From sequence record OQ708376.1: a stretch of DNA of 64,000 nt; one strand, 5' to 3'. Within the stretch, counting starts at the first letter, position 1. Every line of letters begins with the position of its first letter. Below are positions 1,625 to 19,722 of the stretch, piece by piece. Position numbers and translations under genes: made by a program. The notes beneath the pieces are model-generated. The model saw only the letters and a program-made list of their open reading frames with translations, did not search any database and was not told the DNA's origin. Source of the DNA: Escherichia phage vB_EcoM_CRJP21.

Positions 1625-1654
1625 AACTATTTTAAAAGTATTTGTAGAAAGTAC

Positions 1655-1682
1655 TTGCACCGTACTGATAAAAGCGTATAAT
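1655..1682 (+). promoter_or_regulatory. sigma70-like promoter (TTGCAC, 16 bp, TATAAT)
   Basis: consensus-like -35/-10 upstream of first gene. Confidence 0.6.
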
Positions 1683-1696
1683 GTTTTACATCGAGA

Positions 1697-1713
1697 GCGG
1701 GAACACTTCCCGC
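1697..1713 (+). promoter_or_regulatory. palindromic leader hairpin/operator GCGGGAA-cac-TTCCCGC
   Basis: first of about 20 similar GGGGAA-nnn-TTCCCC palindromes placed just after promoters. Confidence 0.55.
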
Positions 1714-1737
1714 TACACATTAAGAGAGATTAAAACG

Positions 1738-2100
1738 ATGGCGACTCAAATCAATAAAATCATGCTTAACCTGGTAAACTTCCGCGATGAGATGAAAGGT
1801 CTTCCGGCTGAAACTGTAAAAATTCACATTGCAGCTTATCGGGAACTTATTGCAATGTTGCCGCTTAAGCGTGAACAATACGCCGCTACTTTGATGCTGG
1901 ATTCAATGATCCATATAATGATCTCAAATGATTTGACGATGGTTTATCAGTATATGGGCGAAAATTTCGCGGTGTGTAGTAAGCCAGTACCAGGGATGGC
2001 AACAACTGAGGAATTGCACGGCTTAAACTTAAAACAAGATGCATGGGATAATATGCCTCGTTTCCTGGTATGGGCTGACAGTGGCAAAATTTACAAATAA
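1738..2100 (+). CDS. hypothetical protein (120 aa)
   Basis: track ORF restarted at internal ATG downstream of promoter and hairpin. Confidence 0.6.
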   Translation: MATQINKIMLNLVNFRDEMKGLPAETVKIHIAAYRELIAMLPLKREQYAATLMLDSMIHIMISNDLTMVYQYMGENFAVCSKPVPGMATTEELHGLNLKQDAWDNMPRFLVWADSGKIYK

Positions 2101-2114
2101 GTTTAATAAAGTAC

Positions 2115-2142
2115 TTGCAAACTATGTTTAATGGCGTATAAT
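2115..2142 (+). promoter_or_regulatory. sigma70-like promoter (TTGCAA, 16 bp, TATAAT)
   Basis: AAAGTACTTGCAA...GCGTATAAT consensus of this region. Confidence 0.65.
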
Positions 2143-2193
2143 GTTTTACATCAGGTGGGGAATAGTTCCCCACTATATAAGAGGATTAAAAAA

Positions 2194-2433
2194 ATGGCTA
2201 AATCAAAAATGTTCTTAGGTCACAAAAACAAAACTCATTGGAATGTAAGCCTTTGGATTAATAACGATGAGGGATTGTATCGGTTGGCCCAGGACTTTAT
2301 TAACGATAGCACTAATCGCAATGATGCGGCCCGTCATATGATGTTATTTTTAGAACAGACTGGACAAGATAAAACACCGGACGGATTCAAATATAGCACT
2401 ACTGCGATCCGTGCGGCGATGGTTGGAATGTAA
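2194..2433 (+). CDS. hypothetical protein (79 aa)
   Basis: internal ATG after promoter, hairpin 2156-2173 and RBS. Confidence 0.6.
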   Translation: MAKSKMFLGHKNKTHWNVSLWINNDEGLYRLAQDFINDSTNRNDAARHMMLFLEQTGQDKTPDGFKYSTTAIRAAMVGM

Positions 2434-2519
2434 TAGAATTTATTTAAAGTACTATCATTTTTTTGCGATAGTACTTTATAATAGTGTTTTATTCATACAC
2501 CAACGATAAGGGCAACAGC

Positions 2520-2786
2520 ATGAAAATTAAGTATTTTGCGACGCGTGAACAAGCTCGGATCGCCGCACGCCAGGACGGGGCAACGTTTAAAGATATGGGC
2601 GTACAATCGGAACGTGGTAAACGTTGGGCCATTGTAAAGCGTAGTACCGCCAGATCATTACAGTACTGGTTAGCGGCCTTAAAAAGTCCCGATAGTGTAT
2701 CGCGTCGAGTGGTAGAAATAAAGCTCGACCGAAAGGGCAACCGCGTGACCGTGTACCGTACTAAAAAGATTGCAGTACTTGAATAA
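2520..2786 (+). CDS. hypothetical protein (88 aa), paralog of 14497..14892
   Basis: shared KYFATREQARIAAR and DRKGNRVTVY motifs; RBS TAAGGG. Confidence 0.6.
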   Translation: MKIKYFATREQARIAARQDGATFKDMGVQSERGKRWAIVKRSTARSLQYWLAALKSPDSVSRRVVEIKLDRKGNRVTVYRTKKIAVLE

Positions 2787-2793
2787 AAAGTAC

Positions 2794-2821
2794 TTGCAAA
2801 CTATGTTTAATGGCGTATAAT
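2794..2821 (+). promoter_or_regulatory. sigma70-like promoter (TTGCAA, 16 bp, TATAAT)
   Basis: near-identical to promoter at 2115. Confidence 0.65.
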
Positions 2822-2873
2822 GTTTTACATCGAGAGCGGGAACTCTTCCCGCCTATAACCTGGAGTAATGAAA

Positions 2874-3104
2874 ATGACTAATATGTATATGACTGAAGTT
2901 AAAACCGTAAAAGATACTACCACGAATAAAACTACTTACTTACAGCGGATCTGTGGTGTATGGCAACGTATCAGCAAATCAAAGTACTTTAAATTAACAT
3001 CATATGCAAACCGTTCGGATTCATTCAGTACTGAAATAAAAGGTAATAAAGTACACCAATACGGCACTTATTATTATTATAGCCTGGACGCGATTGCAGT
3101 ATAA
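2874..3104 (+). CDS. hypothetical protein (76 aa)
   Basis: ATG 8 nt after GGAG; hairpin 2836-2852. Confidence 0.55.
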   Translation: MTNMYMTEVKTVKDTTTNKTTYLQRICGVWQRISKSKYFKLTSYANRSDSFSTEIKGNKVHQYGTYYYYSLDAIAV

Positions 3105-3186
3105 GCAGTTTACAAATCTTTACAATTGCCGGTATTGACTTATTTTGTCAGTACTGGCATAATGTATTCATTGGCAGATAAGCCGT

Positions 3187-3214
3187 AGCCCATAGGGTGC
3201 GGGAGTGTATCTAT
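3187..3214. repeat. R2 motif copy (AGCCCATAGGGTGCGGGAGTGTATCTAT)
   Basis: about 28-bp motif recurring at about 9172, 13194, 16469, 18721. Confidence 0.55.
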
Positions 3215-3245
3215 AGAAAAATTAGTTTAGTATAGTTACAATTGT

Positions 3246-3303
3246 GCACCCGGTGGGTTAGCTGTTGTCATGGGGTATATTATACCAGTACTTGATAATG
3301 CTG
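3246..3303. repeat. R1 element copy 2
   Basis: matches 1081..1145 and 4778..4833. Confidence 0.5.
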
Positions 3304-3354
3304 TCAATACTTTTTTTTTACTATTCAGTACTGAAAACTATTTTTAAAAAGTAC

Positions 3355-3382
3355 TTGCAAACTATGTTTAAAGGCGTATAAT
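3355..3382 (+). promoter_or_regulatory. sigma70-like promoter (TTGCAA-TATAAT), upstream member of tandem pair
   Basis: consensus boxes. Confidence 0.6.
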
Positions 3383-3389
3383 GTTTTAC

Positions 3390-3465
3390 ATCAGGACGGG
3401 GAACGAAATAAGTAACTTCCCGTTAAGTAGCCCAGGAGTAAGGCACACGAAAAACTCCCCTGATA
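3390..3465 (+). ncRNA. candidate structured leader / small RNA (copy 1)
   Basis: about 75-nt element with two imperfect hairpins between tandem promoters; second copy at 13300..13375. Confidence 0.35.
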
Positions 3466-3472
3466 AAATAGT

Positions 3473-3500
3473 TTGACAAATGTTTTTAAAAGCGTATAAT
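3473..3500 (+). promoter_or_regulatory. sigma70-like promoter (TTGACA, 16 bp, TATAAT)
   Basis: consensus boxes, proximal to gene 3533. Confidence 0.6.
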
Positions 3501-3532
3501 ACTTACATCAACTACTGAATGAGGGTTACAAA

Positions 3533-4144
3533 ATGAAAACTATCACTACTACTACTTATGTTATGGCTTTTTCTGAATTGAACGCAGAACAACAAACGTC
3601 AGCTATCGAACTGGTTCGGGAACGTGAAAAAAACTCAAACGACAATTATTTTTCTGAAAGTGAAATTGAATACTATAAAGAAACAGTACTACCGGAATAT
3701 GGCATTAATGACGCTGAAATACAATTCAGTGGTTTTTGGTCCCAGGGTGACGGTGCATCAATCAGTACTGACCACGTTGACGCAGTGAAGTTTTTACGCA
3801 AGGTAAGAGCATTAACTAAGTATCGCTCAATCCGTCACTTGCTGAATGAAGATGATTTGGCGATGAGTGTAAAACGTTCGCACTCCCACTACTCGCATGA
3901 GAATACTGTAAGCGGGTACATTGAATCGGCTTACACTGATTTAACCGCAAAACAAGAAACGTTAGTTAATGAGCTTGAGGAACTACTCACTGAAACTATT
4001 CGTGAATTGTCCCGCAAGTTGTACCGTGATTTAGAGAATGCATATGAGGATCAATTCACTACTGAAAACATTACGGCACTGATTGAGGGTAACGAATATC
4101 AATTCAATGTTATTGATGGCGTAGTAGAATCAATCGAATATTAA
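3533..4144 (+). CDS. hypothetical protein (203 aa)
   Basis: track ORF; RBS GAGGG 7 nt upstream. Confidence 0.7.
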   Translation: MKTITTTTYVMAFSELNAEQQTSAIELVREREKNSNDNYFSESEIEYYKETVLPEYGINDAEIQFSGFWSQGDGASISTDHVDAVKFLRKVRALTKYRSIRHLLNEDDLAMSVKRSHSHYSHENTVSGYIESAYTDLTAKQETLVNELEELLTETIRELSRKLYRDLENAYEDQFTTENITALIEGNEYQFNVIDGVVESIEY

Positions 4145-4156
4145 TTTAAAAAGTAC

Positions 4157-4184
4157 TTGCAAACTAAGTTTAAAAGCGTATAAT
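4157..4184 (+). promoter_or_regulatory. sigma70-like promoter (TTGCAA, 16 bp, TATAAT)
   Basis: consensus boxes. Confidence 0.6.
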
Positions 4185-4236
4185 ACTTTATATCGAGAGC
4201 GGGAATAGTTCCCGCTACTAATGAGGAATACTACAA

Positions 4237-4401
4237 ATGAATACTTTTACCTTCGCTCAATTGAACGCCCTGGATGTATTGTCTGATGCTTTGCGGGATG
4301 CAACTGAAAGCGGTTTATTTGACAATGTTGACATTCACCCTGATGTAATTAATAATTTTTGTGATGCTATCGCAGAAGTACTGGAAGATCTAAAAAAATA
4401 A
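4237..4401 (+). CDS. hypothetical small protein (54 aa, not in ORF track)
   Basis: hand translation MNTFTFAQLNALDV...; promoter + hairpin + RBS upstream. Confidence 0.55.
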   Translation: MNTFTFAQLNALDVLSDALRDATESGLFDNVDIHPDVINNFCDAIAEVLEDLKK

Positions 4402-4411
4402 TAGAAAGTAC

Positions 4412-4439
4412 TTGCAATTAGTTTTCAGTACTGTATAAT
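4412..4439 (+). promoter_or_regulatory. sigma70-like promoter with extended -10 (TTGCAA ... TGTATAAT)
   Basis: consensus boxes. Confidence 0.65.
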
Positions 4440-4489
4440 GGTTTACATCAAAGGGAGAAATGGTTCTCCCTGGTAATGAGGAAAATACA

Positions 4490-4711
4490 ATGGCTAATAT
4501 CACTACTCTTTCCCAACTGGAAGCACTGGTTAAATCTATGCGGGAACATGCTGACAAAATCGGCGTACAAGATCCAGCCGTTTGCTTCTGCGACGAATTG
4601 AATGATGATACCCTGGTAATAGCAGAAGTCCAGGACGTTTCTAACTATTCCTCGCGTTACACTGGCGGCGTAGCAAATAAAGGTGACTTCTGTTTATACC
4701 TTACAAAATAA
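4490..4711 (+). CDS. hypothetical protein (73 aa)
   Basis: internal ATG after leader hairpin 4453-4470; track start lies inside the hairpin. Confidence 0.6.
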   Translation: MANITTLSQLEALVKSMREHADKIGVQDPAVCFCDELNDDTLVIAEVQDVSNYSSRYTGGVANKGDFCLYLTK

Positions 4712-4712
4712 C

Positions 4713-4748
4713 AACGCGGGGAGATAATAACTCCCCGTTACTTTTTCA
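4713..4748 (+). terminator. rho-independent terminator (GC stem + T-run)
   Basis: CGGGGAG-ataataa-CTCCCCG then CTTTTT. Confidence 0.6.
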
Positions 4749-4777
4749 GTACTGAATCATTTAATAGACGGATCTCG

Positions 4778-4833
4778 GCACCCGGTGGGTTAGTGACTGT
4801 TTCGTCTTGATGTAGTAATTATGCCAGTACTGG
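4778..4833. repeat. R1 element copy 3
   Basis: GCACCCGGTGGGTTAG...CTTGATGTAGTAATTATGCCAGTACTGG. Confidence 0.5.
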
Positions 4834-4954
4834 ATGCACTTGTCAACAATTATTTTCCAAATACTTTTTATTAAAATACTTGCAATTAGTTTTTAAACGC
4901 GTATAATGTTTTGCATAGGGGGAGCGGTTCCCCTGGTAACTAAGGAATAATAAA

Positions 4955-5191
4955 ATGCTTGAACAAATCAAATCAACGTCTTCGAATGTAACGGGAACGG
5001 TAGCACACTTTACTAGTGATGAATCGCGGGGCGTTCCCTATTGTGCTGTACATGTAAACACTGAGGGTAACTACTGGTTTACGGTTTACGGATCATATTC
5101 ATTTGGACGGCCTGGACATCAAAAAATTCTGGATAAAGTACAACCAACGGGTAAAAATATCACTGCCGAAATGTTTTATAAAAAATCATAA
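4955..5191 (+). CDS. hypothetical protein (78 aa)
   Basis: track ORF; promoter + GGGGAGCGGTTCCCC hairpin + RBS. Confidence 0.65.
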   Translation: MLEQIKSTSSNVTGTVAHFTSDESRGVPYCAVHVNTEGNYWFTVYGSYSFGRPGHQKILDKVQPTGKNITAEMFYKKS

Positions 5192-5275
5192 AGTACTTGC
5201 AATTAGTTTTTAGTACTGTATAATATTTTACATCGCAAGGGGAAACGGTTTCCCCTGGTAACTAAGGATAATCAA

Positions 5276-5575
5276 ATGAAAATTGCAATCATCGCCCTGG
5301 CTTTATCTGTTTCCTCTTTCGCTGTTAATGCGTCATTAGATGTAAGTAGTGAAAAATTCATTCAGTGCACTGTTGCAATGACCGATGAAAGAACTGGCGA
5401 GATTGTATTAAAGGATTTAGAGATCCAGCCGGAAGCATTTAAAAACGGCCCGTTCCATGAAGAAGACGAAAACGGTAGCACGACAATTTATTATGATGCC
5501 AGTACTAAACGCGGTTCGGTCACTGTAATGGATACCGAGAAAGTAACTCATACCGGCGTTATTAATTGCCGTTGA
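5276..5575 (+). CDS. small secreted/periplasmic protein (Sec-type signal peptide)
   Basis: N-terminus MKIAIIALALSVSSFAVNA with AxA-like cleavage site. Confidence 0.6.
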   Translation: MKIAIIALALSVSSFAVNASLDVSSEKFIQCTVAMTDERTGEIVLKDLEIQPEAFKNGPFHEEDENGSTTIYYDASTKRGSVTVMDTEKVTHTGVINCR

Positions 5576-5596
5576 TAGATACTACGGGGTAACATC

Positions 5597-5827
5597 ATGA
5601 CTAAGCGAATTGTTTTACTTAACGAAAGCAGTACTACACAACTACTTAACGCCGTGCATTATGATATTGAAACGAGCGTTAATCTTATCAGTACTGTAGT
5701 TCTGTTGGACACTGGAAAGGTAGCCAATGATAAAGCGATTGCAGGTATACTAACGGATCTTGTGCCTGGTAGCAGTGCACCAATAACGTTAAATGGTAAA
5801 GTGTTTAATATTTTACTCACTGATTAA
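5597..5827 (+). CDS. hypothetical protein (76 aa)
   Basis: track ORF followed by terminator. Confidence 0.55.
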   Translation: MTKRIVLLNESSTTQLLNAVHYDIETSVNLISTVVLLDTGKVANDKAIAGILTDLVPGSSAPITLNGKVFNILLTD

Positions 5828-5833
5828 GTACAT

Positions 5834-5857
5834 AGCCCACCTGGTGGGCTTTTTTGT
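5834..5857 (+). terminator. rho-independent terminator
   Basis: AGCCCAC-ctg-GTGGGCT + TTTTTTG. Confidence 0.7.
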
Positions 5858-6060
5858 TTTTGTAGTATCGTAGTACTGAGATACTTTGAAAATAGTTTTA
5901 AAAAAGTAGTTGACATTACCACAGAAAAGCGTAGAATGTATTACATCAAGACGGGGAGCACTAAGTAGACCGCCAGTAAGTCGAACGAAAAACTGGACAC
6001 GTCGAGAAAACTTTGATACACTAATAAACGTAAACTAAACTTTAATTGAGGATTTATAAA

Positions 6061-6543
6061 ATGGCTAATGTAAAATCATTCATCAAAGCACTGGTAGCAA
6101 ATGAAACTAACGTCGCGGCTGAGATCCTGGCTGAACTGGATAACGATACCATGAAAGCGGTACGCAACAATTTTAACATTGCGTACAGTGAAGCTAAAGA
6201 ACTGCAAGCCAAAAAGGTAGCAGAACTGGAAGAACAGAAAAAAGCCCGTGAAGCAGAACTACAAGCAACAATTGAAAGTATTCAGGCGGCAGTGTCTGGA
6301 TTGGATCTGGAAGTGGTTGTAGAAATGGCACATAAAGCCCTGGCGGTTAAGTACGGTGAAGATAAGCCGGAATCTAAACCTAAAAAATGGATTCAAGAAC
6401 GTGTTACTGTAGTACTTGATAACGGTGAAGAACATTTGATTCCTGTACGCGGTAACTGCATTGCGGTAGTACTGGACGCTATCAAAGAAAGCGGTATGAC
6501 TCGCGAGGAATGGATCGAAGCTCATCGCAAAGTTGAAGCATAA
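6061..6543 (+). CDS. hypothetical protein (160 aa)
   Basis: ATG 8 nt after GAGGA; promoter TTGACA/TAGAAT at about 5908-5936. Confidence 0.65.
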   Translation: MANVKSFIKALVANETNVAAEILAELDNDTMKAVRNNFNIAYSEAKELQAKKVAELEEQKKAREAELQATIESIQAAVSGLDLEVVVEMAHKALAVKYGEDKPESKPKKWIQERVTVVLDNGEEHLIPVRGNCIAVVLDAIKESGMTREEWIEAHRKVEA

Positions 6544-6564
6544 CAATTAAAGTACTGAATCACT

Positions 6565-6592
6565 AGCCCACCTTAAACAGTGGGCTTTTTTG
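6565..6592 (+). terminator. rho-independent terminator
   Basis: AGCCCAC-loop-GTGGGCT + TTTTTT. Confidence 0.7.
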
Positions 6593-6610
6593 TGTCTGTA
6601 GTATTCCAGT

Positions 6611-6680
6611 CCACCAGCACCGCCTAGAATCGATTCTAACGCATTAAACTGATTATCTGATACATCGCCCTAGCTGGTGG
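6611..6680. repeat. inverted Chi-like octamer pair (CCACCAGC ... GCTGGTGG) flanking inverted R4 motif
   Basis: direct read. Confidence 0.55.
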
Positions 6681-6828
6681 CGTTAAGGTCGTTAGAATGC
6701 GATTGAGAGCGTTTAAAGTATTTTGCAAAAAGTAATAAAAAGTACTTGCACGATTAAGAGATTAGCGTATAATGTTTTACATCGAGAGGGGGAAACGGTT
6801 CTCCTTCCAAATCAAAGGAATCAAAACA

Positions 6829-7056
6829 ATGGCTATTATCATTACTCGCGTATCTGGTACTACTGGCAACGAACAAGTAGTTGCAGTCATTACTAACAAG
6901 GCAGGTGCGGAATTGCAAAATGCAATGAATACCTGGGCCGTTAATGAGTTCGGTCAGTGGGCAAGTGTAGCATACATTGAAACCTATCAAGTGCCGTCGA
7001 TTAGTTTAACTGATTTGGGCGTTGAGCGTATCCTTTGCCTGGATGAATTAAATTAA
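6829..7056 (+). CDS. hypothetical protein (75 aa), MAII-start paralog group
   Basis: internal ATG after promoter and hairpin; N-terminus resembles 7143 and 10054 genes. Confidence 0.6.
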   Translation: MAIIITRVSGTTGNEQVVAVITNKAGAELQNAMNTWAVNEFGQWASVAYIETYQVPSISLTDLGVERILCLDELN

Positions 7057-7142
7057 AAAAAGTACTTGCAAAGTAAATCGAATAAAGTATAATACATTAC
7101 ATCAAGGGGAGAAATGATTCTCCCCACTACAAGGAAACTAAA

Positions 7143-7355
7143 ATGGCTATCATTACTAAAATCAAAGTTAACAAGACTATCGTTAAACTGGCAGAAGTGA
7201 AAGAAGGTTATAAAGTATCTTGGTGCGGTATGTATCGGACGTTCGCAGATATAGATGATGCGATCAATTATTACAGTGACACGGTTAAAAACTTTGTTCG
7301 TGCTGATGTGGTTATGGCAGTGGCAACATATAAAGCAGCGAAAGAAAGTAAGTAA
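7143..7355 (+). CDS. hypothetical protein (70 aa), MAII-start paralog group
   Basis: track ORF; promoter + GGGGAGAAATGATTCTCCCC hairpin. Confidence 0.65.
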   Translation: MAIITKIKVNKTIVKLAEVKEGYKVSWCGMYRTFADIDDAINYYSDTVKNFVRADVVMAVATYKAAKESK

Positions 7356-7374
7356 AAATATTATCACAGTACTA

Positions 7375-7403
7375 TTGACATAGTTTGATAGTACTGGCAT
7401 AAT
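7375..7403 (+). promoter_or_regulatory. class-II promoter (AGTACT-flanked TTGACA, 17 bp, CATAAT), no leader hairpin
   Basis: same architecture at about 9990, 10258, 18047. Confidence 0.6.
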
Positions 7404-7446
7404 AGATTTTATCAAGACGACACATATTAATTTAAGGAATACTAAA

Positions 7447-7770
7447 ATGGCTAAAACTATCATCAACACCGTTTCCCTGGCTGCAATCCATGCAATCAAT
7501 GTTGACGGTAAACGTTGGACTGATTCATATGGCAATACTTATCATTCTTGTCATGTAAGCGTTGAACTGGATAACGGCTTGAATGATCTGGCGGTTGAAT
7601 CATTTACTTATGGCTATGAGGATGCATATCAACAAACGGCGGTATCACTCTTAAAGGAATCAGTAGACGGGCTTGATACTGTTGAAACCTCCCTCTATCG
7701 TTTGTGCAATGATCTTAATATCCCGTTGCATTGTACTGTACAGGATGTAAAACGTAAAAAAGATCTTTAA
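7447..7770 (+). CDS. hypothetical protein (107 aa), paralog of 14078..14401
   Basis: shared RWTD..GNTYHSC..ETFTYGY..DVKRKKD motifs. Confidence 0.65.
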   Translation: MAKTIINTVSLAAIHAINVDGKRWTDSYGNTYHSCHVSVELDNGLNDLAVESFTYGYEDAYQQTAVSLLKESVDGLDTVETSLYRLCNDLNIPLHCTVQDVKRKKDL

Positions 7771-7850
7771 TTAGCTTTACTTTATGCAGATACTTTGATA
7801 TAGTGTCTGCATAGGGGAAAGAAATTAAATCAACTTAAGAGGAAAGTAAA

Positions 7851-8120
7851 ATGAAAAATATCAGTACTTTAATCGATGCAGGTACACATGTTCGTCGGTC
7901 TATGGTTGCAACCAGTTCTACAAAACAAGTAGCGAGCGGTTATCTTGTATTTGTGCACGATGGAAAACTCCTGGAACGTTCAATCAATTTTGATGTTAAA
8001 AACAATTGCCGTTTTATTATCTTTCGCCGTGAACAATATAAAATTGATTTGCCAGCGAAGCCCATTAGCGGGGCGTACAACGTGCAATCATTGTTTGAGC
8101 GTCAACCTTACACCTATTAA
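7851..8120 (+). CDS. hypothetical protein (89 aa)
   Basis: track ORF; RBS AAGAGGAAAG. Confidence 0.55.
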   Translation: MKNISTLIDAGTHVRRSMVATSSTKQVASGYLVFVHDGKLLERSINFDVKNNCRFIIFRREQYKIDLPAKPISGAYNVQSLFERQPYTY

Positions 8121-8171
8121 TCAAAACATCGTTAGCGGTCGATTTAGGCCGCTTATATTGGGGATTATACC

Positions 8172-8444
8172 ATGAACGTTAATCAAGTACTGAATGAGAT
8201 CGAAAGCATCATTAAACCGATGAAGCGTACTGATGCTATGTTAACACCGGAAGAATGCCGCCTTTATGAGCGTTACAGCGTCGAACAAGTCCAGGCAATG
8301 GCTATGGCTACCCCAGCCGTTTCACCGCCTGAGAATGCGTTACAGGACGTTACAGGGGATTATATCATTAATCCAGTACTAGGGAAGATGACTGCAATCA
8401 CCGAAGATCAAAAAGACTACTTAAGCCAGTACTTAAAAGGTTAA
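8172..8444 (+). CDS. hypothetical protein (90 aa)
   Basis: track ORF. Confidence 0.5.
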   Translation: MNVNQVLNEIESIIKPMKRTDAMLTPEECRLYERYSVEQVQAMAMATPAVSPPENALQDVTGDYIINPVLGKMTAITEDQKDYLSQYLKG

Positions 8445-13128: not shown

Positions 13129-13137
13129 AAATAATTG

Positions 13138-13234
13138 AAAAAGGGATTGACTCCGGTCAGTCCCTTTGCTATTATATACGCATAGAAACAAATCAGCCCA
13201 CAGGGTGCATAAATGTATCTATTGTTTGCTGGTG
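13138..13234 (+). repeat. intergenic cassette copy B (R3 hairpin-promoter + R2) followed by Chi octamer 13227-13234
   Basis: near-identical to copies at 9111, 16409, 18667. Confidence 0.55.
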
Positions 13235-13299
13235 GCTAGTACTGAAAACTATTTTTAAAAAAGTACTTGCATTGTACTTAGAATCAAGTATAATGTTTT

Positions 13300-13375
13300 A
13301 CATCAGGACGGGGAACGAAACAAGTAACCCCGTTAAGTAGTCCAGGAGTAAGACATAAGAAAACCTCCCCTGATA
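13300..13375 (+). ncRNA. candidate structured leader / small RNA (copy 2)
   Basis: about 90 percent identical by eye to 3390..3465; between tandem promoters. Confidence 0.35.
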
Positions 13376-13443
13376 AAATAGTTTGACAATAGAAAGTAAA
13401 CGAGTATAATACTTACATCAACCACTGATAAGGAAACATTAAA

Positions 13444-13719
13444 ATGCGGATTCTACTGACAGCTAACGAAATCGAACAAGTACTGACTACTAACCTGGAA
13501 GACTGGAAACGTGAAGCAGATATCCAGGCGGTTCAACGGCTTAACGATGAGTTAACGCCGGATGACTTAAGCAAGATTGTAGATCCTCAATTCTACGAAG
13601 ATATCCACGACACCGCGTTAAGCGTCGAGGATGTACTAGATAAGCACTACATTGATATTGATTTGCAGGTTTACGGTCGTAAAAACTTTATCACTATTCA
13701 CGACATTTACAATAATTAA
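13444..13719 (+). CDS. hypothetical protein (91 aa)
   Basis: track ORF; promoter TTGACA-16-TATAAT at 13382-13409. Confidence 0.65.
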   Translation: MRILLTANEIEQVLTTNLEDWKREADIQAVQRLNDELTPDDLSKIVDPQFYEDIHDTALSVEDVLDKHYIDIDLQVYGRKNFITIHDIYNN

Positions 13720-13805
13720 GTATTGACAAAGTATCTTAGTACTGTATAATAGTTTACATCGAGAGGGGGAATGGTTCCCCTCCTAACAAAGAGAGAGAAA
13801 TAAAA

Positions 13806-13988
13806 ATGGCTAAATGCACTATCTGTAAGAAAGAAATCGTATTAGTTCCAAGTGCCCGTGAACGTGCCGCTCGGTTCGGTGGCAAAGCGTCAGACTATAC
13901 AAAAATGTTTACTACCCATGCAGCTTGCCAGGTAGCAAAACGTTCACAAGAAAGCGTAGAATTAATGCGTAAACTTTCCAAAAAATAA
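13806..13988 (+). CDS. hypothetical protein (60 aa, Cys-containing)
   Basis: track ORF; promoter + GGGGGAATGGTTCCCCTCC hairpin. Confidence 0.6.
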   Translation: MAKCTICKKEIVLVPSARERAARFGGKASDYTKMFTTHAACQVAKRSQESVELMRKLSKK

Positions 13989-14077
13989 GTATTGACAAAG
14001 TATCTTAGTACTGTATAATAGTTTACATCAAGCGAGGGGAATGGTTCCCCTCCTAACTAAAAGAGAGAGAAATAAAA

Positions 14078-14401
14078 ATGGCTATGATCCTTACCCAGAA
14101 AGTAGAACTGAAAATTGTAACCTCCTTTGACATTAAAGTTAATCGCTGGACTGATCGGAACGGTAACACTTACCACTCTTGCTACGTGTCCGCGTTAATT
14201 GGCGACCGCTGGGAAGACTTGGGACATGAAACCTTTACTTACGGTTACGGTACACAAGGAGAATACACGGGCTTGGAGATCATTAAAGAAACCGTTATAG
14301 GTTTCAACCCGAAAGAAAAAGTTATTCACCGCATCGAAAAAGAGATTAACAAAGAAATAACAGTTCGCTACTACGATGTAAAACGTAAGAAAGACATGTA
14401 A
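14078..14401 (+). CDS. hypothetical protein (107 aa), paralog of 7447..7770
   Basis: promoter/leader duplicated from the 13727 copy. Confidence 0.65.
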   Translation: MAMILTQKVELKIVTSFDIKVNRWTDRNGNTYHSCYVSALIGDRWEDLGHETFTYGYGTQGEYTGLEIIKETVIGFNPKEKVIHRIEKEINKEITVRYYDVKRKKDM

Positions 14402-14496
14402 TAGAATCCATTTAAAGTACTATTTGACATTGCCCAGATAGTACTTTATAATAGACTCTAACTTGTAGTACTAACTCAACTAATAGGATGTATACC

Positions 14497-14892
14497 ATGA
14501 TTACTAAATTCTACGCTACCCGTGAAGCTGCCCGTATTGTTGCACGCGAGGAAGGAGCAGCATTTAAAGACATGGGCAAAGATGCACCGAAAGGTCAACG
14601 CTGGGCCGTACAGTTCAAAGAAATCTCTGATATCGTGAATTCACCGGAGCCAGTACTAACAGCAGCAGAACTAAAACGAGCGGATTTACTGGCGGCAGTA
14701 CTTAACGCACAAGATGAATTTATCGCTGATTCTGATATCAAAGTACAGACAAACCATACCGCTTGGACTCACGCGGATCACCTGGCAAACCTTAAGCGTC
14801 CAAGTGAACTGGTTCGCAACCAGAAAGAGATCCGACACGACCGTAAGGGTAATCGTGTAACAGTATACAGTAAACGCCGCCAGGTTATCTAA
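14497..14892 (+). CDS. hypothetical protein (131 aa), paralog of 2520..2786
   Basis: ATG 8 nt after TAGGA; shared motifs. Confidence 0.6.
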   Translation: MITKFYATREAARIVAREEGAAFKDMGKDAPKGQRWAVQFKEISDIVNSPEPVLTAAELKRADLLAAVLNAQDEFIADSDIKVQTNHTAWTHADHLANLKRPSELVRNQKEIRHDRKGNRVTVYSKRRQVI

Positions 14893-14914
14893 TAACTTGC
14901 AGTACTAACAACAC

Positions 14915-14940
14915 GGCGGGATCAGTTCCCGCCTTTTTTA
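14915..14940 (+). terminator. rho-independent terminator
   Basis: GGCGGGA-tcagt-TCCCGCC + TTTTTT. Confidence 0.75.
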
Positions 14941-14954
14941 TAGGATAAACTAAA

Positions 14955-15209
14955 ATGATTAAGGTACAACTATCTAAAGATAATATCTTGCGGGTACACT
15001 ATAAAGCACCACAGAGAATCATCACAAAGGCCGTACAGCTTGCTAATGAGTTTATTAATGGTAACCTATTACCAAGGAAGTTAAGCAACGGAAAACTGCG
15101 TGTAATCGATGTAGACACTAACAACAGAATAGTAATTGAGAACACAGGAAAGATAAACCTATATGAACACCAACAATATAATAAGAAAATAAAACTAATA
15201 TCACGTTGA
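14955..15209 (+). CDS. hypothetical protein (84 aa)
   Basis: track ORF. Confidence 0.55.
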   Translation: MIKVQLSKDNILRVHYKAPQRIITKAVQLANEFINGNLLPRKLSNGKLRVIDVDTNNRIVIENTGKINLYEHQQYNKKIKLISR

Positions 15210-15262
15210 CAGTACTCAATTGTTTTAGTACTATGTACATATACCAACACGGGAGAAACAAA

Positions 15263-15481
15263 ATGAAATTATCTAAAATCGAAAAGAAAACTATTGATGA
15301 AGCAGTTAAGCACGGTTATACCTTTCGTAATGATTCACATTTTACCAATTTTCAACAAGGGTATCGTACTATTAAAAAACTCATTGACAAAGGTTTATTA
15401 GTTGAAGTCAATAACGGCAATGGTATTGAGTATCAACCAACACAAGACGCATTTTATTTTAAGAAATATAATATTATCTAA
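15263..15481 (+). CDS. hypothetical protein (72 aa)
   Basis: internal ATG after promoter TTGACAGTACTCAA... Confidence 0.55.
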   Translation: MKLSKIEKKTIDEAVKHGYTFRNDSHFTNFQQGYRTIKKLIDKGLLVEVNNGNGIEYQPTQDAFYFKKYNII

Positions 15482-15539
15482 TTGACAGTACTCAAATGTT
15501 TTAGTACTATATGTACATACCAACACGGGGAAAAACAAA

Positions 15540-15782
15540 ATGATTACTTTAGAAAAACGTATCAAAGAAACTACATCGCTGGTGGAACTGTTAACAGTAC
15601 TGAAATGCCGTACTACTCGGTTTAGTACACCGGACTTTATTAATATGGTTGATGTTAATGGTCGCTATCGTATCACGGTCGAACAAGGAGCGGCGAAAGT
15701 ATTCAGTACTAAAAACACTAAGGAAGTGATTCACGCTGTAAGTGTTAAAAAAGTAGTTGCCATTGATAGTAAAGTACTGTAA
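15540..15782 (+). CDS. hypothetical protein (80 aa)
   Basis: track ORF; promoter duplicated from upstream gene. Confidence 0.55.
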   Translation: MITLEKRIKETTSLVELLTVLKCRTTRFSTPDFINMVDVNGRYRITVEQGAAKVFSTKNTKEVIHAVSVKKVVAIDSKVL

Positions 15783-15813
15783 GATAGTTTCATTAACTCA
15801 AGGAGAACATGCA

Positions 15814-16398
15814 ATGCGTAATTATACTAAATTCATCCGTACCCTGTCAGAAATGGAAACCAACAAAGAGATCCTTTCAGCTTGTCGGTTAGCTGGTCTG
15901 GAGATCATCGGTGCGGGTTCTTCCCGTATTGTATTCGCTTTAAATGATCGGTTAGTGATTAAGGTCGCGAATTGTGATGCGGGTGTAGAACAAAATGAAA
16001 CTGAATGTAAGGTATGGAATTTTTTAGATTATGACCGCCCTCAATTGAAACAGTACTTTGCAAAGGTGCATATGCATTTATGCGATCCTGATAATATGTT
16101 TATCGTTATGGATCGGTTGAGTACTGCAAGTAAAGGCAGTGTAAAGCACGTAAACGCGTGCAATGAATTAAAGTACAATATTAAACGTAATGCCATTGAA
16201 CGCCAGCACCGCTTTGCTGATGCACTACAACACGTTGATGATACATTATCAACACTAACGATAAGAGATATCAGAAAACAGAATATCGGCCAGGATCGTA
16301 ATGGCCTTATTAAAGTACTTGATTACGGTTTAACCCGCAATATCTGGAATCAGTACTATAAAAAGCGTGATGTAGAAGCAAGTAAGGTAACACGATAA
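15814..16398 (+). CDS. protein-kinase-like protein (ePK/RIO/Kdo-kinase-like fold)
   Basis: Gly-rich loop IGAGSSRIVF, Lys motif VIKV, catalytic-loop-like IRDIRKQNIG, DFG-like LDYG; RBS AGGAG. Confidence 0.5.
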   Translation: MRNYTKFIRTLSEMETNKEILSACRLAGLEIIGAGSSRIVFALNDRLVIKVANCDAGVEQNETECKVWNFLDYDRPQLKQYFAKVHMHLCDPDNMFIVMDRLSTASKGSVKHVNACNELKYNIKRNAIERQHRFADALQHVDDTLSTLTIRDIRKQNIGQDRNGLIKVLDYGLTRNIWNQYYKKRDVEASKVTR

Positions 16399-16408
16399 AA
16401 AAGATTAA

Positions 16409-16498
16409 AAAAGGGATTGACTCCGGTCAGTCCCTTTGCTATTATATATTCATTGAGAGATAACTCACTGACCCATAGGGTGCGGAAGTGTATCTATT
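16409..16498 (+). repeat. intergenic cassette copy C (R3 + R2)
   Basis: near-identical to other copies. Confidence 0.55.
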
Positions 16499-16619
16499 AT
16501 ATAAGTATTCAGTACTGAAAACTATTTTTAAAAAAGTACTTGCATTGTACTTAGAATCAAGTATAATGTTTTACATAGAGAGGGGGAAATGGTTCTCCCT
16601 GGTAATAAGGAATAAAATC

Positions 16620-16841
16620 ATGACTACAATGACTTGCATTTACGCTTCCAATCTTCTGAATGATGCGGCCTTTAATGTTGATTCAGAATATCAATGTTAT
16701 CGGGATGAAAATAAAAAAGTTTTTGTAGTTGATAATAATGGTTTCCATATTGAATTACAATCCGGTTTCACTGGTGTTGATGGTAAATCAGTGTGGGGCG
16801 TACAGGATGATAAAGGCACATATCATTTTAAACGTAATTAA
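16620..16841 (+). CDS. hypothetical protein (73 aa)
   Basis: internal ATG after promoter and hairpin. Confidence 0.6.
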   Translation: MTTMTCIYASNLLNDAAFNVDSEYQCYRDENKKVFVVDNNGFHIELQSGFTGVDGKSVWGVQDDKGTYHFKRN

Positions 16842-16925
16842 GTATTGACAAAGTATATCAGTACTGTATAATAGTTTACATCAAGGGGAGAATAGTTCTC
16901 CCCGATACTAAAAGGAAACAAAATT

Positions 16926-17198
16926 ATGTCCAGCTACTCCGCTACTATGATCATTAAAGATATGAACGGTAATCCTACTTCTGCTGGTGGATCATTTGGA
17001 AACATTAATTTAGATGGTCGGTTATCCATGCAATCAGCCATCGATGCAGCGAAAGAAGTTTTTAAGAATGAATGTACTGTTAGTAAGATGGATTATATGG
17101 GATTCGCTATCGAGAAAACTAATCGTTTTGTGAACTACAAAAATCCACTGATGATTGATACTAACCTGAAAGCTAACGAAGTGGGGTACTTATTATGA
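16926..17198 (+). CDS. hypothetical protein (90 aa)
   Basis: track ORF; promoter TTGACA...TGTATAAT + hairpin. Confidence 0.6.
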   Translation: MSSYSATMIIKDMNGNPTSAGGSFGNINLDGRLSMQSAIDAAKEVFKNECTVSKMDYMGFAIEKTNRFVNYKNPLMIDTNLKANEVGYLL

Positions 17199-17386
17199 CA
17201 GTAGAAGAAGTTAAAAAAGTACTGGCAGTACTACGCTATCATAATCATTGCAAGGTGAAGAATGATCCTGATTATGTTGATTCATCCCTGGAGGAAGACA
17301 CATTAAACGCAATAAGCCATATGCAAACATTAGCAAAGCGTATGACCGAAAAGAATAGACCGGACTATATCGGAAATAAAATTTAA
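17195..17386 (+). CDS. hypothetical protein (63 aa)
   Basis: ATGA translational coupling. Confidence 0.55.
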   Translation: MTVEEVKKVLAVLRYHNHCKVKNDPDYVDSSLEEDTLNAISHMQTLAKRMTEKNRPDYIGNKI

Positions 17387-17472
17387 AAAGTACTTGCATT
17401 GTAGTTAGATTAACGTATAATGTTTTACATAGAGCGGGGGAATAGTTCTCCCGCCAGTCCAGGAGATACACC

Positions 17473-17736
17473 ATGAACACTATCGAAATCACTATCAATG
17501 CACACGTATACGACAACGTAGTACTGCAAACTACTATGACCGCTAATGATACCAGTACTTTGCGGAATACCGTTGTAAGTGCTGTATGTGCTGCAATCGG
17601 TGATGTAGCCCTGGAAAATGCAGAACACATCAACAACGGTTTCACTATGTGCAAACGTGATAACGCAAAACATATCATCTTAGAAGGTTACGGCGGTGTA
17701 GAATATAATCTTTATATGAAAAAAGTACTTGCATAA
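17473..17736 (+). CDS. hypothetical protein (87 aa)
   Basis: track ORF; promoter + hairpin; RBS AGGAGA. Confidence 0.65.
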   Translation: MNTIEITINAHVYDNVVLQTTMTANDTSTLRNTVVSAVCAAIGDVALENAEHINNGFTMCKRDNAKHIILEGYGGVEYNLYMKKVLA

Positions 17737-17803
17737 TAACTAAAACAAAGTATAATGTTTTGCATAGGGGGAGATATCCTCCCCCACTAAAAGGAGTAAT
17801 AAA

Positions 17804-18028
17804 ATGGCTAACTTTGATGAACTGATGCGGGAAGTAGCTAACCTGGCAGAAGAGAAGAAATCATTCGATTCTATCTATAACACCGCTCACCGTGATTCAG
17901 TACTGGCATGTACTCAGGATCAAAAAGATGAACTAATCGCCACCTATCATGAAGCATGGAAGTACTACCGACAATGGGAGAAAGAAGAAAGTGAGTCTAC
18001 CATTGACGGCCTCAATAATCTAATCTAA
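17804..18028 (+). CDS. hypothetical protein (74 aa)
   Basis: track ORF; promoter overlaps stop of upstream gene. Confidence 0.6.
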   Translation: MANFDELMREVANLAEEKKSFDSIYNTAHRDSVLACTQDQKDELIATYHEAWKYYRQWEKEESESTIDGLNNLI

Positions 18029-18104
18029 AAGTTTTATTTCAGTACTATTGACATAGCTTGATAGTACTGATGTAATAACTTTACTAACTACAAGGGGAAA
18101 CATA

Positions 18105-18362
18105 ATGGAACAGTTCACACAATATCGGGTAAATCCTCAAGCTATGGCCTACGTAGAAGACCATAAAACATTACCAGTACTGCAACCAGTTAAAGGCCAT
18201 ATCTATCGTGCTATGTCGTGGAGTACTGCACAGGATGGATATAAAACCGTTGCCGTGGGTATGTATTGCGGGAATGGTGAATGGTTTGATCCAAATAATC
18301 CGGTAGCCATTGACAGTACTGAAAAAATGAAATGGGCCGACTACATCGAAGATATTTCATAA
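18105..18362 (+). CDS. hypothetical protein (85 aa)
   Basis: track ORF; class-II promoter. Confidence 0.6.
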   Translation: MEQFTQYRVNPQAMAYVEDHKTLPVLQPVKGHIYRAMSWSTAQDGYKTVAVGMYCGNGEWFDPNNPVAIDSTEKMKWADYIEDIS

Positions 18363-18451
18363 AACTATTTGACAGTACTAACCAGTAATGTATAATGTTT
18401 TACATAGAGCGGGGGAATAGTTCTCCCGTCAATAGTTTGGAGTAAAACATT

Positions 18452-18652
18452 ATGTCTATCGCTATCGCCCTGGTTGAAGTACTGAAAGAAGCTAAAGCCA
18501 ACCTTATCGATGTACAGATTAAGGAATTACAAAATGGTTTAATCGGCTGTACTTGTACCGCTGGTGGAGCGGCAGACTATCGGGAATTCGAATCACTTGA
18601 ATCGATGGTCCGTTATCTTACCATGATCGTAGAAGATTGGAGAATCATCTAA
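18452..18652 (+). CDS. hypothetical protein (66 aa)
   Basis: track ORF; promoter + hairpin. Confidence 0.6.
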   Translation: MSIAIALVEVLKEAKANLIDVQIKELQNGLIGCTCTAGGAADYREFESLESMVRYLTMIVEDWRII

Positions 18653-18666
18653 CAAAAAAGAATAAA

Positions 18667-18790
18667 AAAAGGGATTGACTCCGGTCAGTCCCTTTGCTAT
18701 TATATACTCATAGACAAAAACTAGCCCACTGGGTGCAGGAGTGTATCTAAAATATATAGTTAATAACGGTGAGTAACTATCTGCTGGTGG
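18667..18790 (+). repeat. intergenic cassette copy D (R3 + R2) followed by Chi octamer 18783-18790
   Basis: direct read. Confidence 0.55.
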
Positions 18791-18898
18791 GGTGAAAACT
18801 ATTAATAAAAAAAGTATTGACAAAGTATATCAGTACTGCAATAATGTATCTCGTAGGGCGGCAATGGTGCGACGGCCCACAAAGTTAGGAGATTCAAA

Positions 18899-19231
18899 AT
18901 GAGTACTTCAATCGCTATCGTTAAAGCTTTCATCCGTACCAATGTTTCATCTGTATTCATCGACGGTCTGGATCGGGAAGTAGAATACTCAATCATTATC
19001 GCACAGACTGCAAACGGTGCTCGGTATATCCTTAATGATAGTGAAGCAAATCACTACTACTTCACTAAAGCTACTGGCTTTAAACGCATCGATGCTGACG
19101 TAGTATACACTAAGATGAATAAGCTGGTAGACAAGATTAACGCGAAAGGTACTATCGATTTACAGTACTGGACCGAAACCGATCCAGAATATGGATCTCA
19201 CCGCTACCTGAATCCAGGTATTAAAATGTAA
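18899..19231 (+). CDS. hypothetical protein (110 aa)
   Basis: track ORF; RBS AGGAG. Confidence 0.65.
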   Translation: MSTSIAIVKAFIRTNVSSVFIDGLDREVEYSIIIAQTANGARYILNDSEANHYYFTKATGFKRIDADVVYTKMNKLVDKINAKGTIDLQYWTETDPEYGSHRYLNPGIKM

Positions 19232-19320
19232 AAAGTACTTGCATAGTACTTAGAATCAAGTATAATGTTTTACATAGAGAGGGGGAAATGGTTCTCCCTC
19301 CTAAATTAAGGAGTTTTATC

Positions 19321-19722
19321 ATGACCTTCTCAATCAATTCCTTCGCTGACGTTTTAGTACTGGCTCGGACTTTCGGTAAAGATGCACTGGAGTACGCTGT
19401 AAGTAATGGTACTATCCAACCGGAACAGTGCCGCATCATTGGAAACTGCAAACGTTGGGCGGTATCCAATACTATTGCACTGGAAAACTTCCACGATGGC
19501 AACAATGAATATTCTGTTGATGTAGTATTCGAAGCCGTTGATCTCGGCGGTATCTATAATACTAACCTGAATGATGTGCGTATCGTTCGCACGGGGTTCG
19601 GTGCTTATGATGTATCTATTCGTGAAGCTATGAACACCGGATACATTAGCAAGGACTTACTTGCTCACATCATGCAGCTGTGTACGGAACGTAACGAAGC
19701 ACGCACTATCTTAGGACTGTAA
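19321..19722 (+). CDS. hypothetical protein (133 aa)
   Basis: internal ATG 7 nt after AAGGAG. Confidence 0.65.
   Translation: MTFSINSFADVLVLARTFGKDALEYAVSNGTIQPEQCRIIGNCKRWAVSNTIALENFHDGNNEYSVDVVFEAVDLGGIYNTNLNDVRIVRTGFGAYDVSIREAMNTGYISKDLLAHIMQLCTERNEARTILGL

Follow-up and report, generated by a model that had tools for sequence, protein, structure and literature searches.

The 64,000-nucleotide stretch of Escherichia phage vB_EcoM_CRJP21 analysed here (record OQ708376.1; the whole stretch is referred to as the window) forms the left-hand end of the genome of an Asteriusvirus jumbo coliphage (PBECO4/121Q group). It includes a direct terminal repeat of about 20 kb, in which a sigma70 promoter followed by a G-rich/C-rich stem-loop in the leader recurs in front of the early genes. 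The relatives of bases 1600-9600 are the Asteriusvirus jumbo coliphages EC.P1 (96.9%), fEgEco12 (97.8%), PBECO4 (95%) and 121Q (88%), and window position 1600 aligns with genome position 1608 of fEgEco12. Direct terminal repeats of about 20.7-21.5 kb are described for fEgEco12 and its relatives (PMC13070987, PMC11895373). In vB_Ec-M-J, the annotation places the homologous cassette inside a 'Direct Terminal Repeats' feature, and the GC content of the window is about 0.38-0.39 up to 20 kb and about 0.32 thereafter. From the terminal-repeat match, the annotation and the drop in GC content, it follows that the hairpin units span essentially the whole terminal repeat, presumed to be the earliest-expressed DNA. 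Against Pfam, the 47 early open reading frames (ORFs) yielded only four domain families above the curated cut-off and two domains of unknown function, with no DNA-binding domain (helix-turn-helix or other) and no RNA-binding domain recognised among them. No tRNAs were found within the window.

A promoter-anchored scan combined with a hairpin scan revealed 22 leader hairpins on the plus strand between 1696 and 19300, all of them 3' of a near-consensus sigma70 promoter (TTGCAA/TTGCAT/TTGCAC/TTGACA-N16(17)-TATAAT). The units follow the layout aAAAAGTAC-promoter-gttttaCATC(g/a)a-(stem-loop)-~10 nt-SD-ATG, in which the Shine-Dalgarno sequence (SD) preceding the ATG is AGGA or GAGG:

1655-1740, plus strand: cassette, TTGCAC-16-TATAAT; hairpin 1696-1714, AGCGGGAA-cac-TTCCCGCT; ATG 1738
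2115-2196, plus strand: cassette, TTGCAA-16-TATAAT; hairpin 2154-2174, GGTGGGGAA-tag-TTCCCCACT, one G·U; ATG 2194
2794-2876, plus strand: cassette; hairpin 2836-2852, GCGGGAA-ctc-TTCCCGC; ATG 2874
4157-4239, plus strand: cassette; hairpin 4198-4216, AGCGGGAA-tag-TTCCCGCT; ATG 4237
4412-4492, plus strand: cassette; hairpin 4452-4471, AGGGAGAA-atgg-TTCTCCCT; ATG 4490
4880-4957, plus strand: cassette; hairpin 4916-4935, TAGGGGGA-gcgg-TTCCCCTG, two G·U; ATG 4955
5197-5278, plus strand: cassette; hairpin 5238-5256, AGGGGAAA-cgg-TTTCCCCT; ATG 5276
6746-6831, plus strand: cassette; hairpin 6786-6807, GAGGGGGAA-acgg-TTCTCCTTC, two G·U; ATG 6829
7066-7145, plus strand: cassette; hairpin 7106-7125, GGGGAGAA-atga-TTCTCCCC; ATG 7143
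8650-8730, plus strand: cassette; hairpin 8690-8709, GGGGAGAA-atga-TTCTCCCC; ATG 8728
9242-9323, plus strand: cassette; hairpin 9283-9301, AGGGGAAA-cgg-TTTCCCCT; ATG 9321
9677-9761, plus strand: cassette, TTGACA-16-TATAAT; hairpin 9717-9736, GGGGAGAA-aaac-TTCTCCCC; ATG 9759
11792-11869, plus strand: cassette, TTGCAT-17-TATAGT; hairpin 11831-11849, AGGGGAA-acatc-TTCCCCT; ATG 11867
12413-12492, plus strand: cassette; hairpin 12453-12472, GGGGAGAA-atga-TTCTCCCC; ATG 12490
13723-13808, plus strand: cassette; hairpin 13763-13782, GAGGGGGA-atgg-TTCCCCTC, one G·U; ATG 13806
13992-14080, plus strand: cassette; hairpin 14034-14052, GAGGGGAA-tgg-TTCCCCTC; ATG 14078
16540-16622, plus strand: cassette; hairpin 16581-16600, AGGGGGAA-atgg-TTCTCCCT, one G·U; ATG 16620
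16845-16928, plus strand: cassette; hairpin 16885-16903, GGGGAGAA-tag-TTCTCCCC; ATG 16926
17394-17475, plus strand: cassette; hairpin 17434-17454, GCGGGGGAA-tag-TTCTCCCGC, one G·U; ATG 17473
17729-17806, plus strand: cassette; hairpin 17767-17785, GGGGGAG-atatc-CTCCCCC; ATG 17804
18369-18454, plus strand: cassette; hairpin 18409-18429, GCGGGGGAA-tag-TTCTCCCGT, two G·U; ATG 18452
19239-19323, plus strand: cassette; hairpin 19279-19300, GAGGGGGAA-atgg-TTCTCCCTC, one G·U; ATG 19321
18817-18901, plus strand: cassette; degenerate, bulged leader hairpin at about 18855-18880, -9.2 kcal/mol, no better than shuffles

The last of these is additional to the 22, and its homologue in the Vequintavirinae phage A73 has a clean hairpin, GGGCGGCA-atag-TGCCGCTC. 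Across the 22 copies, stems of 7-9 bp close loops of 3-5 nt, with folding energies of -9.6 to -13.5 kcal/mol. The stem starts 8-14 nt past the -10 hexamer (mean 12.0, sd 1.3) and ends 17-25 nt before the ATG (mean 19.9, sd 2.2). When the whole leader was folded together with 30 nt of coding sequence, the hairpin always formed a separate module and the SD was mostly open.

The association of promoter and hairpin is genuine and far from random. In 1601-19400 there are 17 perfect GC-rich hairpins with seven or more base pairs, compared with 0.5±0.8 (maximum 4) in 200 dinucleotide shuffles and with two in the 44 kb that remain. With ten copies as its training set, a covariance model recovered all 22 on the plus strand (1689-19305); it returned nothing credible in 20-64 kb and, elsewhere, one terminator-like hairpin at 4712-4742. 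About 43 promoter units lie in 1.6-19.3 kb, 22 of them with the stem-loop within the leader, and no promoter unit of the cassette type occurs in 20-64 kb. The claim of the initial annotation that about 20 early promoters are each followed by a leader palindrome is thus borne out, and the four hairpins quoted there (1696-1714, 7106-7125, 5238-5256 and 13763-13782) were all recovered. Rfam covariance models searched against 1-21000 gave only three sub-threshold chance matches, and the papers on the phages CBB, Sharanji and fEgEco12 make no mention of the hairpins described here.

Judged by their sequence, the units are promoter-early stem-loop (PeSL) cassettes, known from T4-type phages and found here in a jumbo-phage lineage. 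A PeSL is defined by an AT-rich tract, a sigma70-like promoter, a Gn-loop-Cn stem-loop with G-T pairs, an SD and an ATG; PeSLs occur in RB49/phi1, PST/T4 and nt-1/KVP40, repeated before ORFans in variable regions, and fall into five positional subclasses, one with the stem-loop 3' of the -10 (PMC2839356, PMC4122927). Indels and gene swaps between close relatives are associated with these cassettes, whose recombination is described as releasing mini-circles (PMC2839356, PMC4122927). In the window, all 22 units have an A-rich tract resembling an UP element and the promoter aAAAAGTAC-TTGCAA/TTGACA-N16-TATAAT, the 22 leader stem-loops contain 11 G·U pairs, other units carry a repeat across the -35, and the SD and ATG follow the stem at the distances given above. 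The roughly 43 units stand before small ORFs with few Pfam matches. Further, boundaries of homology with other phages are concentrated in the cassettes, with a caveat as to intergenic divergence and paralogous matches that is taken up below.

The likeness extends to the letters. The RB49 cassettes share aaaaagtTGTTGACA...TATAAT...CATCGAAACGA...GGAG...ATG, and their leaders start with CATACCGAAACGA or CATCAAGACGA (CATC(G/A)A(A/G)ACGA), just as those of the window start with CATCGAGAG and CATCAAGG. In most RB49 cassettes the stem-loop occupies the spacer or spans the -10; that of ORF207 has a GGGAG...CTCCC stem-loop 12 nt past the -10, as in the window. In Munch, leader hairpins occur alongside hairpins that span the -10 and have the form GGGGATAGgtTATACTATCCCC. 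In a further promoter class of Munch (sites 6180, 6404, 8963, 12699, 18385 and 19444), a GGGGATAG...CTATCCCC hairpin contains the -10 (TATACT/TACAAT) within its loop and 3' arm, an arrangement like that of the commonest PeSL subclass in RB49.

There are differences as well. Published PeSLs belong to Straboviridae, whereas the lineage studied here comprises jumbo Asteriusvirus phages and relatives (RaK2, Munch); the leader subclass dominates the window with its 22 units, whereas the RB49 stem-loop is mostly inside the promoter; and the window array fills a terminal repeat with stem-loops unlike canonical terminators. What is new is therefore the jumbo-phage lineage and the location of the stem-loop mostly within the transcript, while the PeSL kind itself is known. 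The initial annotation, although supported in part, had not recognised that the whole unit matches the published cassette. The PeSL concept is hereby extended from T4-type to jumbo phages (Asteriusvirus, RaK2-like, Munch-like) and to the Vequintavirinae, and for annotation the cassette reliably flags early genes, as well as the terminal repeat, in these poorly annotated 350-kb genomes.

Several observations bear on whether the stem-loop matters as RNA or as duplex DNA. Within this one genome the stems vary (GCGGGAA, GGGGAGAA, AGGGGAAA, GGGGGAG and others), as does the half-site spacing, that is, the loop length (3, 4 or 5 nt). Eight of the 22 stems are imperfect DNA palindromes but perfect RNA helices by virtue of the 11 G·U pairs, and internal A·C oppositions are absent. 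A detector scoring G·T and A·C alike found, in promoter-proximal leader hairpins of the window and its relatives, 15 G·U and one U·G versus a single, register-dependent A·C; the other A·C/C·A cases that it returned are unrelated hairpins. MAFFT placed the 3-nt- and 4-nt-loop copies among the 22 hairpins out of register, and a covariance-model alignment was used instead. Besides copies from the window, the structural alignment draws on 121Q, EJP2, Munch, A73 and metagenomic contigs, with 52 distinct copies in all. Its pairing cells amount to 92.2% versus 82.1% when shuffled, and 45 cells are changed on both sides versus 14.9. The covariation score is 0.388, compared with 0.186 for shuffled alignments (0 of 500 reach it) and 0.07-0.135 for slid controls. 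One stem pair is GC in 17 copies, GU in 19 and AU in 14, with zero unpaired cells. The sense strand also folds more stably than the antisense (mean -11.5 versus -10.4 kcal/mol, Wilcoxon p=0.03).

The layout outlasts the sequence of the stem in RaK2, Munch and Vequintavirinae phages. RaK2 has the same arrangement with other stems (GGGATACA-tag-TGTATCCC, GGGAATGAA-tga-TTCATTCCC), as do metagenomic contigs (GGTAAGCA/TGCTTATC, GGGTAAGC/GCTTACCC, GGTTAAGGA/TTCTTAACC); a single pattern scan of IMG/VR gave mostly chance single matches, and only multi-hit loci were informative. Overall, the evidence supports a structure selected on the transcribed strand rather than a symmetric protein-binding duplex.

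The cassettes also appear to mark the joints between exchangeable genes. In comparisons of the window with 121Q, EJP2, Munch and A73, 33 of 66 homology-block boundaries fall inside cassettes, which cover 18.6% of the region (p=8e-9), and the ends of several blocks coincide with the base at which a hairpin starts (4916, 6786, 17432). Orthologues anchored on their coding sequences in 121Q, PBECO4, EJP2 and A73 show that cassette type is uncoupled from the gene, the same gene being preceded by different stems, by a promoter of a second class without leader hairpin (class 2) or by no hairpin at all. Gene 6829 is preceded by GAGGGGGAA-acgg both in the window and in PBECO4, by GGGGAGAA-tag in A73 and, in 121Q, by a leader that lacks a hairpin; gene 7143 has a hairpin in the window and a class-2 promoter in 121Q; and gene 4955 has three different stems in three phages. 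Such uncoupling fits PeSL-mediated exchange and argues against two gene-specific regulatory classes, so that the proposal of two regulatory classes in the initial annotation is weakened. Coding-sequence-anchored refolding was used here in place of column-wise substitution rates against orthologues, which were discarded as confounded by gaps in G/C runs, mostly those of one record. Phage CMSTMSU (MH494197, 'UNVERIFIED') shows many single-base gaps in G/C runs against all relatives and fragmented ORF calls; these are likely homopolymer sequencing errors, which make it unsuitable for fine comparison.

Several Vequintavirinae phages of about 140 kb carry unit 7050-7145 at 94-96% identity. Cassette-plus-gene modules of 90-96% identity are common to the window phage and the Vequintavirinae A73, W70, A5-4, UPEC06 and LTH01 (also of about 140 kb); in A73 the shared module lies at 19967-19998 and neighbouring positions. 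Identity at this level indicates recent exchange between unrelated phage families and fits cassette-borne exchange of early 'host-takeover' ORFans.

What the hairpin does depends on where transcription starts. We infer that +1 is the A of the conserved CAT, the eighth nucleotide past the -10. The early consensus of RB49 has C at -3 to -1, which agrees with mapped 5' ends (PMC1524935). With this start, 1-7 nt, typically 5, would remain unpaired before the stem, and each early mRNA would begin with a hairpin of -10 to -13.5 kcal/mol at about +6 to +26. Moreover, stop codons abut the next promoter and most genes have no other terminator between them, so that past the stop codon of the preceding gene the hairpin would be the first stable structure.

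We consider it probable that these PeSL-type early-gene cassettes combine RNA punctuation with recombination. As RNA, the hairpin would punctuate a dense array of co-directional transcription units and could hold back or attenuate, as a barrier at the 3' side, the RNA that reads through from the upstream unit; in the leader subclass it may in addition give the gene's own mRNA a structured 5' module. The cassette of about 100 bp could supply the homology for swapping single-gene modules. Since stem-loops of the same family lie 5' of +1 in RB49 and Munch, a common function most plausibly acts on the RNA of the upstream unit. The original PeSL papers left the role of the stem-loop at 'terminator/attenuator', and the 22 natural variants, mostly inside the transcript, constitute a ready-made mutational series for PeSL stem-loop function.

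Several points weigh against this interpretation. Many hairpin copies are recent paralogues, so the covariation and wobble counts exceed the number of independent events, which we estimate at six or seven G·U positions versus at most one A·C. Part of the enrichment of breakpoints is to be expected, since divergence is faster in intergenic DNA and short matches arise between paralogous cassettes. The +1 is a prediction from promoter geometry and from analogy with RB49. Only 1-3 T occur in the 8 nt past the stem in the 22 hairpins and none is called a terminator, which makes canonical termination unlikely. Some orthologues have no hairpin, which must then be dispensable for at least some genes. 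Finally, the roughly five unpaired 5' nucleotides, together with bypass by RNase E, make a 5' protective role doubtful (PMC9943677).

The alternative that survives best, albeit an unlikely one, is a pure 5' stabiliser of mRNA that protects from RppH and RNase E, as the 5' stem-loops of ompA (E. coli) and T7 gene 10 do. The window hairpins resemble these in being GC-rich, near the predicted mRNA 5' end and autonomously folding, with a purine-rich 5' arm and an open ribosome-binding site downstream; the T7 phi10 leader GGGAGACC-ACAAC-GGUUUCCC is similar to GGGGGAA-acaac-TTCCCCC of Munch. However, the ompA and T7 stems begin at or about 2-4 nt from +1, whereas about 5 nt (1-7) are predicted, from start sites that are themselves deduced, to be unpaired here, and some five unpaired 5' nucleotides suffice for RppH and for the 5' sensor of RNase E. 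Stem-loops of the same cassette family in RB49 and Munch are mostly 5' of +1 and could not act in this way, and the hairpin is missing in some orthologues. Simple stem-loops are, besides, readily bypassed by RNase E, which leaves a stabiliser role doubtful (PMC9943677). The suggestion of the initial annotation of a 5'-terminal RNA stem-loop that could stabilise mRNA thus stands as to RNA structure; the hairpin is predicted to be near-terminal rather than terminal, and the stabilising part is doubtful.

Quite unlikely, in our estimate, is a terminator or attenuator as proposed for PeSLs, whereby the stem-loop stops or damps transcription from upstream units. In its favour, the PeSL211/210 stem-loop placed between a promoter and lacZ cut expression about as much as rrnB T1, a strong reduction shown for this one RB49 stem-loop only and obtained without an obvious U-tract (PMC2839356); the abutting stop codons and the scarcity of other terminators between genes are also in keeping with it. 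An intrinsic (Rho-independent) terminator is a hairpin followed by a U-rich tract, however, and the leader hairpins have no such tract and were not called terminator-like on the plus strand. The region does contain canonical terminators made of a hairpin and a T-run (4716, 5834, 6565, 14915), and a terminator in the leader would also stop the unit's own transcripts.

We regard as improbable a recognition site in RNA, by which a phage or host RNA-binding protein or nuclease would mark, protect or shut off early mRNAs together. The nearly invariant apical GAA...UUC speaks for it, as do loops (UAG, AUGG, AUGA, CGG, ACAUC/ACAAC) that recur on different stems and in different genera. Against it are the variety of loops in one genome (three lengths and at least ten sequences), the lack of any RNA-binding domain detected by Pfam in the 47 early ORFs, and the orthologues without a hairpin. 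A further reading, to which we give equally little credence, makes the leader hairpin a 'self' tag common to the first mRNAs of the terminal repeat, with the conserved GAA-loop-UUC apex read by a phage-delivered or very early RNA-binding factor. If true, tagged transcripts could be shielded during the destruction of host mRNA, or later be cut or silenced as a group, and a cassette swap would move a gene into or out of the regulon. Lambda nut boxB and HK022 put are likewise short RNA hairpins just 3' of early promoters, but they occur once or twice per genome, have defined loops and act on downstream terminators; the window has 22 copies with variable loops, each before a single small gene.

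It is similarly improbable that the cassette is a recombination module at the DNA level only, with no role in expression and a hairpin that persists through cassette spread. Breakpoints do cluster in cassettes, cassette type is uncoupled from the gene, and RB49 crossovers were mapped in or adjoining the stem-loop (PMC2839356). Compensatory and wobble changes that keep the pairing with a strand bias, and the tight spacing to the -10 and to the ATG, are at odds with it.

Least probable is the double-stranded DNA operator that the initial annotation had put forward, in which a dimeric repressor would bind the GGGGAA-n3-TTCCCC palindrome, here centred near +16, and shut off the early promoters together. 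In its favour, the palindrome overlaps the part of the gene transcribed first, in which operators of the lac O1 type act, and conservation is good in the apical GAA/TTC and at the GGG/CCC base. Instead of conserved half-sites, fixed spacing and two-strand symmetry there are half-sites and spacings that vary within one genome, G·T positions that break DNA symmetry and keep RNA pairing with essentially no A·C, and a structure kept with unrelated sequences in other genera, and no DNA-binding domain was found in the 47 early ORFs, a regulator possibly being encoded elsewhere. The hairpins of phage N4, likewise short (5-7-bp stems, 3-nt loops) and at the genome end entering the cell first, are the promoter itself, 5' of +1 and read by the virion RNA polymerase; the fixed distance of the window hairpin 3' of a consensus sigma70 promoter argues against an N4-type promoter.

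Other candidate roles for the hairpin were considered and rejected. Masking of the SD by the C/U-rich 3' arm was set aside, the complementarity being generic purine/pyrimidine and absent for GCGGGAA-type stems, and the SD being open in full-leader folds. For an RNase III site, a stem of 7-9 bp is too short. A block to RNase E scanning is weakened by published work (PMC9943677).

The class-2 promoters that the initial annotation described as lacking the hairpin (7375, 9991, 10261, 18047) do exist and have no leader hairpin. The description nonetheless holds only in part, since an inverted repeat of 12-14 bp encloses the -35 box and spacer at 7375, 9991 and 18047, and also at 2445, 3127 and 14413. 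These and the other stem-loops of the region are:

2445-2478, plus strand: class-2 unit; perfect 12-bp inverted repeat TAAAGTACTATC-n10-GATAGTACTTTA, upstream of and overlapping the -10
3127-3159, plus strand: inverted repeat of 13 bp enclosing the -35 of promoter 3135
7367-7396, plus strand: class-2 unit without leader hairpin; promoter 7375 has its -35 (TTGACA) and spacer enclosed by CAGTACTATTGA-catagt-TTGATAGTACTG
9983-10012, plus strand: class-2 unit; promoter 9991 inside the same inverted repeat as in the 7367-7396 unit
14413-14448, plus strand: class-2 unit; 14-bp inverted repeat TAAAGTACTATTTG-n8-CAGATAGTACTTTA around promoter 14424
18039-18070, plus strand: class-2 unit; 13-bp inverted repeat around promoter 18047
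13140-13167, plus strand: terminator-like hairpin of 12 bp, AAAGGGATTGAC-tccg-GTCAGTCCCTTT, containing the -35 TTGACT of the next promoter
3355-3475, plus strand: promoter and structured leader or RNA of about 75 nt, 5' end paired AUCAGG...CCUGAU; second promoter at 3473; twin at 13267-13385

The terminator-like hairpin at 13140-13167 has copies at 9113-9140, 16410-16437 and 18668-18695, and in all four units the -35 lies inside it. Counting leader, -35-spanning and terminator-like repeats, most promoter units bear a stem-loop somewhere, as PeSLs do; in the same scan about seven have none (3355, 3473, 10261, 10784, 11375, 13383, 15206, 15482). The structured RNA between tandem promoters folds at -19 kcal/mol, with z of -1.5 (3355-3475) and -2.1 (13267-13385), and a third long leader (5910-6061; fold 5945-6065) has no significant structure. 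Discriminators are AT-rich in all early-region promoters.

Recognisable products of the early genes include, by Pfam, a DksA/TraR-type C4 zinc-finger protein (11111-11365), a GNAT acetyltransferase (11432-11785) and a ParE-like toxin-domain protein (14955-15206); a protein-kinase-like ORF with a weak Pfam match lies at 15814-16395.

Two short motifs are also enriched. AGTACT (mostly CAGTACTG) occurs 254 times in 1-64000 versus about 21 expected, an enrichment that is 20-fold in 1-20000 and 8.6-fold beyond, with one copy in 20001-24000 and none in 28001-32000. It flanks many -35/-10 boxes and forms the arms of class-2 inverted repeats, the majority of copies lying within ORFs, and is possibly a binding or modification site. 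Chi (GCTGGTGG) occurs in the first 19 kb nine times on the plus strand (590, 6673, 10498, 11960, 13228, 15578, 16983, 18560, 18783), where 0.1 is expected per strand, and on the minus strand at 578 and 6611; the remaining 44 kb hold one reverse copy only. In the right-hand copy of the terminal repeat, the plus-strand orientation of Chi would face RecBCD entering from that end.

In a set of repeated non-coding units, CCCAYNGGGTGC(R)GGAGTGTATCT comes after a strong promoter of the type TTGACT-17-TATTAT/CATAAT (3135-3310, 1225-1345, 9120-9215, 10784-10860, 13147-13245, 16417-16500, 18675-18750). The unit at 3164-3260, between the convergent promoters 3135 (plus) and 3307 (minus), forms a hairpin of about 30 bp (-39.1 kcal/mol, z=-5.9), and that at 1225-1345 folds at -40.2 kcal/mol (z=-3.0). 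These units have no Rfam match and may be small RNA genes or bidirectional terminators. On its minus strand the terminal repeat has only four sites that resemble strong promoters (1033, 1374, 3307, 4846), each aimed at a GCACCCGGTGGG element and convergent with plus-strand units. Finally, degenerate tandem repeats with periods of 16, 24 and 48 (GACGGCTAAACGGCTAGATGG...) occupy 808-907, near the physical left end and 5' of the first cassettes.

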